This document shows, piece by piece, positions 33,785 through 41,748 of a stretch of DNA of 64,000 bases. The number at the start of each line of letters is the position of its first letter. Position 1 is the stretch's first letter. Source of the stretch: Escherichia coli (GTDB lineage Bacteria; Pseudomonadota; Gammaproteobacteria; Enterobacterales; Enterobacteriaceae); the NCBI RefSeq assembly GCF_030013205.1, contig NZ_CP122648.1; one strand, written 5' to 3'. Position numbers and translations under genes: made by a program. Below the pieces are notes generated by a model, which saw only the letters and a program-made list of their open reading frames with translations, was not told where the DNA came from and did not search any database.

Positions 33785-34342
33785 TTAAAACGTGGTGGGC
33801 GTATGGGCGCTGATAATTCGGCAAATACCTGCCGACGTATTACTGAAACTGTGCGGGATGCCGGTATTAATGGCATAACTTTGCCCCGCGACGAGGTGGT
33901 AATCCTGACCATTAATCGTCAGAACAATTTCACCTTCCAGTACAGTGCCTATTTCCTCACCCTGATGCTTAATTCTTTCCCCAGTGGTTGTGCCCGGCTG
34001 GTAAGTTTCAAAGATCATCGCCAGCGTGCGATTCGGGTTACCGTTATGAACCAGCTTCATTGACACACCCTGACTGCCCATCTCAATTAAGTCGTCCTGA
34101 TTAATGACGACCTGCGGCTCATCAGGTTTTTCCGGCTCGGAAAAGAATTCCGAGAGTGACAGACCATACACCTTCAGCAGCTTTTGCAGCGTACTGATGG
34201 CAGGGCTGACTTTATCTTGTTCTATCGTACTGATAGCACTGTGAGTCAGCCCGGAGAGTTCGGCGGCACGACGTTGTGAAAGCCCCTGCTGCTGGCGGAT
34301 TTCCGACAAGCGTTTTCCTGGCGCCAGTCCCTCATCACTCAT
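33785..34342 (-). CDS. puuR: HTH (XRE) plus cupin repressor of the puu genes
   Basis: 185-aa ORF; recognised by sequence recall. Confidence 0.9.
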   Translation of the reverse strand: MSDEGLAPGKRLSEIRQQQGLSQRRAAELSGLTHSAISTIEQDKVSPAISTLQKLLKVYGLSLSEFFSEPEKPDEPQVVINQDDLIEMGSQGVSMKLVHNGNPNRTLAMIFETYQPGTTTGERIKHQGEEIGTVLEGEIVLTINGQDYHLVAGQSYAINTGIPHSFSNTSAGICRIISAHTPTTF

Positions 34343-34368
34343 ATTTGCATTTCCTTAAACTGTAGTGG

Positions 34369-35133
34369 TCAGAGTCGCTGTTTTTCAGCGATATGGTGCT
34401 GACAAGCGGTGATAAAGCCCTCGAACAATATACGCGAAAGCGCGTACTCGCTACTGTTCCATTCCGGGTGCCACTGTACGCCCAGCGCAAAAGGATGATT
34501 GATGACGCTAACCGCCTCAACTAAGCCATCCGGCGAGCGAGCTTCAACACGCAACCGTGGGCTAACGACCTTCGCCCCTTGTCCATGCAGAGAGTTTACC
34601 CAAAAGTTGCTACATTCAGGTAACAACGCAGACAGTAATCCCCCCTCTTCAACCTGAACTTCATGCGACGGCGCATATTGCTGCTCCACCGGCAGTTCGG
34701 GATCTTCCCGATGTTCCAGCAATTCAGGCTGTTCGCACAGCTTGCGATGCAACGAACCACCGGTTGCCACCACCAGTTCCTGTAAACCCCGGCAGATGGC
34801 GAAAATGGGGATGCGCCTTTCGAGTGCGGCATTAATTAACGCCATGCTCAGAAGATCACGCCCGGGATCGGCGTCAGGCTCATCGCCGTTTTCACCATAT
34901 AGGTGCGGCTGCACATTGCTGGGACTACCAGGAAGATAAATACCATCGAGTTTCGGCAAAAGTTGTTCAAGTAACGACGGTTCCGCCAGCGCATGTGGTA
35001 GCGCAATTGGCAAGCCGCCTGTGTGGATGATGGCATTCAGGTACTTTTCTTGCAGAGTCTGGGTCGCATGACCCTTAAGCCGGTTCCTGCACATTACGAC
35101 ACCGATAACCGGATTGTTCATTATATTTTCCAT
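34369..35133 (-). CDS. puuD: Gamma-glutamyl-GABA hydrolase (class I glutamine amidotransferase-like)
   Basis: ORF 34369-35145; start placed at MENIMNNPV to give 254 aa. Confidence 0.85.
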   Translation of the reverse strand: MENIMNNPVIGVVMCRNRLKGHATQTLQEKYLNAIIHTGGLPIALPHALAEPSLLEQLLPKLDGIYLPGSPSNVQPHLYGENGDEPDADPGRDLLSMALINAALERRIPIFAICRGLQELVVATGGSLHRKLCEQPELLEHREDPELPVEQQYAPSHEVQVEEGGLLSALLPECSNFWVNSLHGQGAKVVSPRLRVEARSPDGLVEAVSVINHPFALGVQWHPEWNSSEYALSRILFEGFITACQHHIAEKQRL

Positions 35134-35191
35134 GCTCAATCTCACAAAGTGGACTAAATTATCGCCATTACTGCGCTTTAAATGACCTTTA

Positions 35192-35205
35192 TGTTCAATA
35201 TTTTT
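35192..35205. promoter_or_regulatory. Candidate PuuR box in the puuA/puuD divergent region
   Basis: Minus-strand AAAATATTGAACA resembles the recalled PuuR consensus AAAATATAATGAACA. Recall is uncertain. Confidence 0.25.
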
Positions 35206-35286
35206 TCAATCTAGCAGTGGGTTTTCATTTTTGCAAACTCAATTTAACATTTGACAAACATTTAGTTTGCATACAGATTCGAATGG

Positions 35287-35301
35287 TGGTCATTATATTT
35301 T
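35287..35301. promoter_or_regulatory. Candidate PuuR box just upstream of puuA
   Basis: Minus-strand AAAATATAATGACCA, one mismatch to the recalled consensus. Confidence 0.3.
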
Positions 35302-35344
35302 ACGCTTTGATAACGAGCGGAAAACAAACCAAAGGCGAAGAATC

Positions 35345-36763
35345 ATGGAAACCAATATCGTTGAAGTAGAGAACTTTGTTCAGCAGTCAGAAGAGAGGCG
35401 GGGTAGCGCCTTTACGCAGGAAGTGAAACGCTACCTGGAGCGCTACCCGAATACGCAATATGTTGATGTTTTACTTACCGATTTGAATGGTTGCTTCCGT
35501 GGAAAACGTATTCCTGTTTCAAGCCTGAAGAAGCTCGAGAAAGGGTGTTATTTCCCGGCCTCGGTGTTTGCAATGGATATTCTGGGCAACGTAGTAGAAG
35601 AAGCGGGCCTGGGTCAGGAAATGGGCGAGCCGGATCGTACCTGTGTTCCTGTTCTCGGTTCCTTAACCCCTTCTGCCGCCGATCCAGAGTTTATCGGTCA
35701 GATGCTCCTGACCATGGTCGATGAAGATGGCGCTCCCTTTGACGTTGAGCCGCGGAACGTTCTTAACCGCCTGTGGCAGCAGCTGCGCCAGCGCGGATTG
35801 TTCCCGGTCGTAGCGGTAGAGCTGGAGTTCTATTTACTGGATCGCCAGCGCGACGCTGAAGGATATCTGCAACCGCCCTGCGCGCCCGGCACCGATGACC
35901 GCAATACACAAAGCCAGGTTTACTCCGTTGATAACCTCAACCACTTCGCCGACGTGCTCAATGATATTGATGAGCTGGCGCAGTTACAGCTGATTCCGGC
36001 AGATGGCGCGGTCGCTGAGGCCTCGCCAGGTCAGTTTGAAATCAATCTTTACCATACCGATAACGTGCTGGAAGCTTGCGATGATGCGCTGGCACTAAAA
36101 CGCCTGGTGCGTCTGATGGCAGAAAAGCATAAGATGCACGCCACTTTTATGGCGAAGCCGTATGAAGAGCACGCGGGCAGCGGGATGCATATCCATATCA
36201 GTATGCAAAATAACCGTGGCGAGAACGTGCTTTCTGACGCGGAAGGCGAAGATTCGCCGCTGCTGAAAAAGATGCTTGCCGGGATGATTGACCTGATGCC
36301 GTCATCAATGGCGTTGCTGGCACCAAACGTGAACTCGTATCGCCGCTTCCAGCCAGGTATGTATGTACCGACGCAGGCGTCGTGGGGCCATAACAACCGC
36401 ACCGTCGCCCTGCGTATTCCGTGCGGCGATCGCCATAATCACCGCGTGGAATATCGCGTGGCGGGTGCCGATGCCAACCCGTATCTGGTGATGGCGGCGA
36501 TTTTTGCCGGTATTTTGCATGGCCTTGATAACGAACTGCCATTACAGGAAGAAGTCGAAGGTAACGGGCTGGAACAGGAAGGCTTACCCTTCCCGATTCG
36601 TCAGAGCGATGCCCTGGGTGAGTTTATCGAGAATGATCACCTGCGCCGCTATTTAGGCGAACGGTTTTGCCATGTCTATCACGCCTGTAAAAATGATGAG
36701 CTGTTGCAGTTTGAGCGCCTCATCACAGAAACAGAAATTGAGTGGATGTTGAAAAACGCGTAA
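35345..36763 (+). CDS. puuA: Gamma-glutamylputrescine synthetase (glutamine synthetase family)
   Basis: ORF 35267-36763; start placed at METNIVEV to give 472 aa. Confidence 0.9.
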   Translation: METNIVEVENFVQQSEERRGSAFTQEVKRYLERYPNTQYVDVLLTDLNGCFRGKRIPVSSLKKLEKGCYFPASVFAMDILGNVVEEAGLGQEMGEPDRTCVPVLGSLTPSAADPEFIGQMLLTMVDEDGAPFDVEPRNVLNRLWQQLRQRGLFPVVAVELEFYLLDRQRDAEGYLQPPCAPGTDDRNTQSQVYSVDNLNHFADVLNDIDELAQLQLIPADGAVAEASPGQFEINLYHTDNVLEACDDALALKRLVRLMAEKHKMHATFMAKPYEEHAGSGMHIHISMQNNRGENVLSDAEGEDSPLLKKMLAGMIDLMPSSMALLAPNVNSYRRFQPGMYVPTQASWGHNNRTVALRIPCGDRHNHRVEYRVAGADANPYLVMAAIFAGILHGLDNELPLQEEVEGNGLEQEGLPFPIRQSDALGEFIENDHLRRYLGERFCHVYHACKNDELLQFERLITETEIEWMLKNA

Positions 36764-36764
36764 T

Positions 36765-36786
36765 ACCCCTTGCGGGGTTGTTTCAT
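36765..36786 (+). terminator. Short hairpin (ACCCC-TTGC-GGGGT) and T-rich tail after puuA
   Basis: Begins 2 nt after the puuA stop; weak stem. Confidence 0.3.
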
Positions 36787-37065
36787 CGGCCTGAGCGGAG
36801 CCAGGCCTGACATTTGCTGGTAATCCAGACATTTTCCGGATGTCGCGTTATGGAGCGCAGGCGGCAACGGGCTTCCGTTAACGATTAAGACTGTGACGAG
36901 GAAATGAGATGATGCCGATGATTAAATCCCCGCATGGCGAGGGAGGCTGCGTATGCGCCCCTCCTGCTACTGACTGGACTCCGCCCCCTTTGCTTCCCTT
37001 GCTAAACAGGTTTGATTTCAGGTCGACACGACCGCAAACCTTATTACGCAGGGGAGGCAGCAACT

Positions 37066-40786: not shown

Positions 40787-41748
40787 TTATCTTCACCTTA
40801 CGCCGCATTTTGTTATTGATTGTCACCTTGTTCCTGCTGACCTTCGTTGGCTTCAGCTTGAGCTATTTCACCCCACATGCGCCGTTACAAGGCGCGTCAC
40901 TGTGGAATGCCTGGGTGTTCTGGTTTAATGGCCTGATCCACTGGGATTTTGGTGTTTCCAGCATTAACGGTCAACCGATTGCCGAACAGTTAAAAGAGGT
41001 CTTCCCGGCGACGATGGAACTGTGCATCCTCGCCTTCGGTTTTGCGCTGATTGTTGGCATCCCCGTGGGGATGATTGCCGGGATTACGCGCCATAAGTGG
41101 CAGGATAACTTGATCAACGCCATCGCCTTACTGGGCTTTTCAATCCCGGTGTTCTGGCTGGCGCTTCTGTTGACGCTGTTTTGTTCACTCACGCTAGGTT
41201 GGTTGCCCGTTTCAGGGCGTTTCGATCTGCTCTACGAAGTGAAACCGATTACCGGTTTTGCGTTGATTGATGCCTGGCTTTCGGACTCACCATGGCGGGA
41301 TGAAATGGTCATGAGCGCAATCCGCCATATGATATTGCCCGTGATCACCCTGTCGGTTGCGCCAACAACTGAAGTGATCCGACTGATGCGTATCAGCACT
41401 ATCGAAGTGTATGACCAGAACTATGTTAAAGCAGCGGCGACCCGCGGTTTGTCGCGCTTTACTATCTTGCGTCGCCACGTTCTGCATAACGCGTTACCTC
41501 CGGTTATTCCTCGCCTGGGCTTACAGTTTTCTACCATGCTGACGCTGGCGATGATCACCGAAATGGTTTTTAGCTGGCCGGGTTTAGGGCGCTGGTTAAT
41601 TAACGCCATCCGCCAGCAGGATTACGCAGCCATTTCCGCCGGAGTGATGGTGTGTGGCTCACTGGTCATTATTGTTAACGTGATTTCTGATATTTTGGGT
41701 GCCATGGCTAACCCTCTGAAACATAAGGAATGGTATGCCTTACGATAG
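40783..41748 (+). CDS. sapB: Sap ABC transporter permease
   Basis: 321-aa membrane ORF; 4-bp overlap with sapA. Confidence 0.9.

Follow-up and report, generated by a model that had tools for sequence, protein, structure and literature searches.

Two boxes in the puuA-puuD spacer of Escherichia coli as probable members of a four-site PuuR operator array

Two sequence boxes in the spacer between the divergent puuA and puuD genes of Escherichia coli are very probably two of four operators of the repressor PuuR, all in one orientation, through which puuA on one side and puuD-puuR on the other are repressed until putrescine relieves the repression. This reading is drawn from the match to a reported consensus, the location of the boxes in the spacer near puuR, their conservation across genera and their scores with position-specific matrices, and on these grounds both boxes are supported as PuuR operators. 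The PuuR sites of the puuA-puuD spacer are curated in EcoCyc/RegulonDB. Because the PuuR system was described in 2012, such control through spacer sites counts as already known, in the literature and in regulon databases, and its discovery value here is small. The operator palindrome, the array geometry and the constraint on puuD codons described below are modest refinements, which the 2012 paper or the regulon databases may already note.

The window, by which we mean the whole 64-kb stretch of DNA that was analysed, holds the E. coli puu locus for putrescine utilisation around the boxes, arranged as follows:

33785-34342, minus strand: puuR, the repressor gene, second gene of the puuD-side operon (open reading frame, Pfam)
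34369-35133, minus strand: puuD, gamma-glutamyl-GABA hydrolase, first gene of the leftward operon (open reading frame, annotation), whose first codons carry site 4
35134-35344: puuA-puuD spacer, 211 bp, 66% A+T
35345-36763, plus strand: puuA, glutamate-putrescine ligase, first gene of the rightward puuA-ymjE-puuP unit

This gene map agrees with the divergent puuA/puuD region in which the original prediction had placed the boxes. The 185-aa PuuR combines an HTH_3 domain of the Cro/C1 type (Pfam, 6e-15) with a Cupin_2 domain (6e-19) and matches its K-12 counterpart at 100% identity along the aligned part, while a domain search identifies PuuD as a peptidase C26 and PuuA as a glutamine-synthetase-type ligase. 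Several swine E. coli chromosomes match a 2.5-kb query centred on the boxes at 100% identity, and in these chromosomes puuR and puuD (leftward) and puuA (rightward) are annotated. A stretch of 301 bp, 35090-35390, is identical to K-12 MG1655, so that the published K-12 PuuR sites carry over base for base; the K-12 RefSeq annotation of the same stretch has no binding-site features. The puuR-puuD-puuA segment (34300-36800) was found in 4373 of 5426 complete E. coli genomes and the adjoining sapB/sapC segment in 5421, which means that about one-fifth of complete E. coli genomes are without this part of the puu cluster. The puuD start codon at 35133 is kept in orthologues and the internal Met5 is not. 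A GTGAG(G) motif on the minus strand (35139-35143), kept across genera 6-10 nt 5′ of the puuD ATG, is likely the puuD ribosome-binding site, and its conservation confirms the annotated start over Met5.

Nemoto et al. (J Bacteriol 194:3437) reportedly gave, in 2012, a 15-bp PuuR consensus, AAAATATAATGAACA. Matches to it with zero, one and two mismatches occur three times within 187 bp, all on the puuD-encoding strand, and elsewhere in the 64 kb only scattered three-mismatch matches are found. Together with a degenerate fourth candidate, the predicted sites are:

35287-35304, minus strand: PuuR operator site 1, nearest puuA (15-mer at 35287-35301, AAAATATAATGACCA; 18-bp frame CGTAAAATATAATGACCA)
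35192-35209, minus strand: PuuR operator site 2 (15-mer at 35192-35206, AAAAAATATTGAACA; 18-bp frame TTGAAAAAATATTGAACA)
35150-35167, minus strand: candidate PuuR site 3, degenerate in E. coli (TGGCGATAATTTAGTCCA), with the TGG-N12-CCA frame kept
35115-35132, minus strand: PuuR operator site 4, the best site (TGGAAAATATAATGAACA; the 15-mer at 35115-35129 is the exact consensus)

In K-12 (NC_000913.3) the 15-mers of sites 1, 2 and 4 correspond to 1360952-1360966, 1361047-1361061 and 1361124-1361138, respectively, and the 18-bp frame of candidate site 3 to 1361086-1361103. Sites 1-3 lie within the spacer; site 4 extends over codons 2-6 of puuD and the TG of its start codon. The first of the two boxes originally proposed, on the minus strand at 35287-35301, reads AAAATATAATGACCA exactly as claimed. 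The sequence of the second is also present, with its range off by one base on the minus strand: 35192-35205 spans 14 nt (AAAAATATTGAACA), the claimed 13-mer AAAATATTGAACA lies at 35192-35204, and the box in its full length of 15 nt spans 35192-35206. Their proposed likeness to the PuuR consensus holds, at one and two mismatches respectively and beyond what chance produced in shuffles. The two-box picture was incomplete, missing both the degenerate site 3 and the strongest site, site 4, which falls outside the interval of 35192-35301 that had been singled out.

Composition-preserving controls bear on how far such matches could arise by chance. When the 211-bp spacer was shuffled 5000 times with its dinucleotide composition preserved, two matches with at most two mismatches never appeared together, and one match appeared in 0.5% of the shuffles. 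In a test that makes no use of the consensus, three direct 15-mers differing pairwise at no more than three positions appeared in none of 1000 shuffles of the 301-bp region, and a pair differing at no more than one position in 0.6% of 1000. The exact 15-mer at the puuD start supports the consensus as given above, although that consensus was presumably itself derived from these sites; the consensus behind the original prediction proves sound.

Matrices built from aligned boxes give a similar ranking. With a 15-mer matrix, the three E. coli sites score 20.5-21.8 bits and the next position in the window 12.7. An 18-mer matrix trained exclusively on loci with a PuuR below 97% identity to that of E. 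coli, with Escherichia left out altogether, ranks sites 4, 2 and 1 first to third in the 64 kb, at 25.6 bits (zero mismatches to AAAATATAATGAACA), 23.2 bits (two) and 22.9 bits (one), respectively, the next position reaching 15.2 bits. That next position, the best match outside the spacer, is CGTTAACAATAATGACCA at 41663-41680 on the minus strand (15.2 bits with the asymmetric matrix, 12.7 with the symmetrised one), within sapB, some 55 bp before sapC begins. The annotation of SapBCDF as a putrescine exporter makes a functional link curious; the match is probably due to chance.

The conservation of the sites was followed with PuuR as the query, in one genome per species. This gave 80 loci with PuuR 76-100% identical, from Escherichia, Klebsiella, Raoultella, Enterobacter, Citrobacter, Pluralibacter, Trabulsiella, Cedecea, Buttiauxella, Franconibacter, Hafnia, Erwinia, Pantoea, Serratia and Rahnella. 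Most of these loci have a puuA-puuD spacer of 210-215 bp. An alignment was made of 50 distinct spacers, and conservation was scored on the 21 that are less than 90% identical; site 1, site 2, the puuD-start box and a small number of further blocks form islands, conserved across about 20 genera, in a spacer that otherwise varies. When up to three mismatches are allowed, the control regions of the 80 loci contain 3.34 consensus matches per kb and the other 637 kb contain 0.027 per kb, a 125-fold enrichment over flanking DNA, with the reservation that orthologous sites are non-independent samples and such counts therefore overstate the statistical weight. Site 1 is found at a fixed position in orthologous loci, its conservation beginning at 35304 and stopping at 35286/7, in agreement with the 18-bp frame, and site 2 is kept across genera as AAAATATTGAAC(G/A).

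The arrangement of the sites is conserved along with their sequence. Scored upstream of puuR with the symmetrised matrix, the centres of the four-site array lie at about -172, -77, -35 and 0 relative to the last site. The resulting centre spacings of about 95, 42 and 35 bp are kept from Escherichia to Serratia, the 95-bp spacing in nearly all loci, and the same geometry recurs in second Serratia loci that contain a puuA-like gene and puuR without puuD; in Rahnella, clear conservation is limited to the last site. Spacings of 95 and 42 bp correspond approximately to whole helical turns, and that of 35 bp does not.

Several lineages depart from the common layout in ways worth recording. Many Serratia genomes have a second PuuR locus (L058, L059, L062, L064-L066, L068, L070-L075), in which the operator array is situated roughly 100-400 bp upstream of puuR and which in some cases retains a remnant that looks like the start of puuD (ATGGGCAATATATTT...); both Serratia PuuR copies share 83-87% identity with the E. 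coli protein. In Rahnella (L076, L077, L079-L081) the puuA-puuD spacer measures 370-400 bp by alignment extrapolation. An ATG about 30 nt 5′ of where the aligned PuuD begins is overlapped there by the strong palindromic operator, a hint that the N-terminus of PuuD is longer. Two assemblies are likely mislabelled or contaminated: L025 (CACSKA010000001.1), whose title names Chryseobacterium sp. 18061, contains a puu locus typical of enterobacteria, with a PuuR 94.6% identical to that of E. coli, and L004 (DXKH01000083.1), a metagenome bin named 'Citrobacter sp.', has a PuuR 100% identical to it.

Outside Escherichia, the consensus of the sites, TGKnnAATATATTGnMCA, is nearly self-complementary, with TGGTCAATATATTGACCA as its symmetrised form, and the 15-bp consensus occupies positions 4-18, the 3′ part, of this 18-bp frame. 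Distant loci carry a near-perfect palindrome, TGGGCAATATATTTTCCA, that scores on both strands; it sits at the start of puuD or, in loci lacking that gene, upstream of puuR. As judged from these comparisons, the PuuR operator is likely an 18-bp imperfect palindrome, TGKnnAATA/TATTGnMCA. We grade it as likely, short of proven, because the E. coli sites themselves are self-complementary at only 8-10 of 18 positions; in site 4 the left arm coincides with the ATG. A symmetric site would suit a dimeric helix-turn-helix protein, and a PuuR dimer may be what binds the palindrome. A PDB search returned no PuuR-DNA complex, its best hits covering the HTH domain only (E of about 1e-5).

Site 4 imposes itself on the coding sequence of puuD. 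For Ile at codon 4, 58 of 59 orthologues use the rare ATA, a triplet that makes up 10% of the Ile codons in the rest of puuD; for Asn at codon 3, 52 of 52 use AAT, whose share in the rest of the gene is 29%; and codon 2 always begins with G, even though it encodes E, G, V or D. At codons 7-9, synonymous positions vary freely across orthologues. The 18-mer type of site 4 also persists in loci without puuD, in two of them in another reading frame. Frozen synonymous positions and persistence in the absence of the gene together imply a constraint at the DNA level, as expected for an operator, and make site 4 a clean case in which the choice among synonymous codons is shaped by a transcription-factor site. 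For this site alone, the conservation could instead come from the coding of puuD or from the needs of translation initiation, with no operator in the DNA. Such an origin would fit the position of the site within codons 1-6, the general preference for AT-rich codons near starts and the fact that the TG of its left arm belongs to the puuD start codon. It is nevertheless very unlikely, given that the DNA positions matching the motif stay fixed even where the encoded residue changes, as it does at codons 2, 5 and 6, that the rare ATA is nearly invariant next to freely varying codons, that Serratia loci without puuD keep the 18-mer, two of them in a different frame, and that site 4 exactly matches an operator consensus common to two non-coding sites.

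The identity of the remaining site is less clear-cut. At 35150-35167 the E. coli sequence scores poorly, at 2.8/7.3 bits, the higher value being that of the symmetrised matrix, which still makes it the fourth best position in the spacer, and it forms a strongly conserved block in the spacer alignment. At this position, 35±1 bp from site 4, canonical boxes that face either way and score 14-20 bits are present in Serratia, Trabulsiella, L064, L072 and L078. The conserved position points to 35150-35167 as a putative PuuR site 3. Being the only candidate at which other lineages carry strong canonical boxes, it was preferred as the fourth site to three others: plus-strand 35235-35249 and 35246-35260, with five mismatches each, and 35232-35249, with 4.3 bits. 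The candidate would bring the number of sites to the four motifs counted in the literature and may be the published fourth site. It could also, or instead, provide a proximal puuD promoter with its -10-like element, CGATAAT.

How these sites could act depends on where transcription starts. The open literature yielded no paper giving PuuR site coordinates or puuA/puuD start points, and the Rhizobium PuuR papers used the RegulonDB matrix and did not print it. From the sequence, the following elements are predicted:

35251-35279, plus strand: predicted puuA promoter, with -35 TTGACA (35251-35256), a 17-nt gap and -10 CAGATT (35274-35279)
35208-35236, minus strand: predicted puuD promoter, with -35 TTGCAA (35236-35231), a 17-nt gap and extended -10 TGcTAGATT (35216-35208)
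35245-35260, minus strand: ArcA-box-like direct repeat, TGTTTGTCAAATGTTA, with TGTT twice at 11-bp spacing, overlapping the predicted puuA -35

In the puuA promoter, TTGACA is invariant across genera, and within CAGATT only A2 (35275) and T6 (35279) are strongly conserved. Transcription of puuA would then begin near 35286, placing site 1 at about +2 to +16. The blocks of the puuD promoter, GTTTGCAAA and CTGCTAGATTGA, are conserved across genera; this promoter matches 8 of 12 hexamer positions, and the scan tool has a threshold of 9 of 12. Its predicted start, near 35201, would fall within site 2. The only promoter-like site that the scan tool reported, at 35120-35147 on the minus strand (TTGTGA-16-TATAAT, 10 of 12), takes the TATAAT of site 4 as its -10. 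We rejected it as the puuD promoter because transcription would begin inside puuD, and the operator sequence probably gives rise to it incidentally. Inspection of the spacer by eye revealed no correctly spaced -24/-12 element of a sigma-54 promoter.

The most conserved block of the spacer, the near-invariant 35240-35262 (AAATGTTTGTCAAATGTTAAATT), holds no PuuR box. It contains the TGTT repeats and, on the plus strand, the perfect TTGACA. An ArcA box consists of two direct repeats whose centres lie 11 bp from each other (Park et al. 2013, PMC3798270), and ArcA directly represses puuA and puuDR. The repeat at 35245-35260 may be an ArcA box; its match at 35245-35259 has three mismatches to GTTAATTAAATGTTA, weak when taken alone, and is the only ArcA-like match in the spacer. 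The block 35240-35262 probably couples ArcA repression to the puuA -35. ArcA thus resembles PuuR in acting on the same spacer and the same genes, but its candidate box, at 35245-35260, is a separate element and neither of the two boxes first proposed.

These observations also bear on the idea that the boxes bind a regulator other than PuuR, such as ArcA, FNR or a nucleoid protein (IHF, H-NS or Fis). ArcA and FNR do control puu genes, sites for both have been described in the spacer, the repression of puuA and puuDR by ArcA is direct, and AT-rich DNA attracts nucleoid proteins. Even so, we regard this as extremely unlikely: sites 1 and 2 fail to match the ArcA box, the ArcA-like repeat lies apart from them in its own conserved block, the spacer has no match to the FNR consensus with two or fewer mismatches, and the exact 15-mer of the PuuR consensus occurs here. 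Global regulators, moreover, would have many sites, and the motif is confined to the neighbourhood of puuR in 668 kb of related loci and occurs nowhere else in the 64-kb window. Least probable of all is that the boxes are ordinary AT-rich promoter sequence, with -10-like TATAAT and UP-element-like A tracts that resemble one another by composition and serve no dedicated repressor, for although the spacer is rich in A+T, the consensus contains TATAAT, the scan tool uses that of site 4 as a -10 and site 3 contains GATAAT, composition-preserving shuffles never yield the pattern, the boxes have conserved G/C-containing arms 12 bp apart, the element follows puuR into loci with another gene arrangement, the TATAAT of sites 1 and 4 faces away from, or sits in, the gene served, and PuuR binding is reported here (PMC9951944).

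With the boxes read as PuuR operators, a simple circuit can be proposed. At low putrescine, PuuR would occupy the four-site array, where site 1 covers the predicted puuA start and site 2 the predicted puuD start, so that PuuR bound to both would exclude RNA polymerase from the two promoters by occlusion. Sites 3 and 4, in the puuD leader and at its start codon, may act as roadblocks to elongation or as stabilisers of a higher-order complex of several dimers. Putrescine would free PuuR and allow both operons to be transcribed, puuR included, and ArcA would add oxygen control via the central conserved block. The location of puuR in the puuD operon makes this an autoregulated circuit, from gene order and established knowledge. 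A fuller version, in which dimers read the 18-bp palindrome, the fixed array assembles a single repressing complex over both promoters and site 4 dictates puuD codons, is offered tentatively, as a possibility that falls somewhat short of an even chance; if true, site 4 would couple repression to the very start of the puuD coding sequence.

Published work agrees with the operator reading. According to PMC9951944, which cites Nemoto 2012, PuuR binds the puuA-puuD spacer at four DNA-binding motifs and is released by putrescine, and reporters containing these sites respond to PuuR and putrescine (PMC9951944). A review describes repression of puuAP and puuDRCBE by PuuR and places FNR and ArcA sites in the spacer as well (PMC9397018). 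When the primers of the PuuR biosensor paper are mapped onto the window, the boundaries of the promoter constructs bracket exactly the four-site array. The 'full-length' puuD promoter construct runs from 35344 to 35096 and deliberately includes 12 puuD codons, and hence site 4; the 'full-length' puuA promoter construct begins at 35109, just outside site 4; and the short puuD promoter construct, from 35277 to 35134, is without sites 1 and 4. In Corynebacterium supplied with PuuR, the on/off ratios were 36 for the full and 6.9 for the short puuD promoter, and 2.2 for the full and 1.95 for the short puuA promoter. The outer sites 1 and 4 seem to add to puuD repression, since it falls from 36-fold to 6.9-fold without them, removed as they were together with other sequence and in a foreign host. 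For those who build PuuR-based putrescine biosensors, the array geometry, the likely 18-bp operator and site 4 suggest which bases and sites to keep.

Comparison with known systems places the puu array among familiar designs. Pseudomonas PauR has been named an orthologue of PuuR (PMC12645834), and both PauR and the Vibrio cholerae HTH_3-cupin protein 1Y9Q share its two-domain architecture. In repressors that join an XRE-type HTH to a cupin, the ligand is sensed in the cupin barrel and the N-terminal Cro/C1-type HTH reads the DNA; for an HTH of this type, dimer binding to inverted repeats is expected. Repression through several operators, one of them in the first structural gene, is known from lac O2 inside lacZ and from gal OI. 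The puu array resembles the lac and gal systems in having several operators at fixed spacing, one of which lies downstream of a start codon, but its sites share one orientation and serve two promoters, and looping or cooperativity of PuuR is putative only. The closest counterpart is the set of K-12 PuuR operators themselves (Nemoto et al. 2012), with which the present case has in common the organism, identical DNA, the genes, the repressor and the four motifs. Nothing of substance sets the two apart, and what is added here is the 18-bp palindrome, the conserved geometry and the site within the puuD codons.
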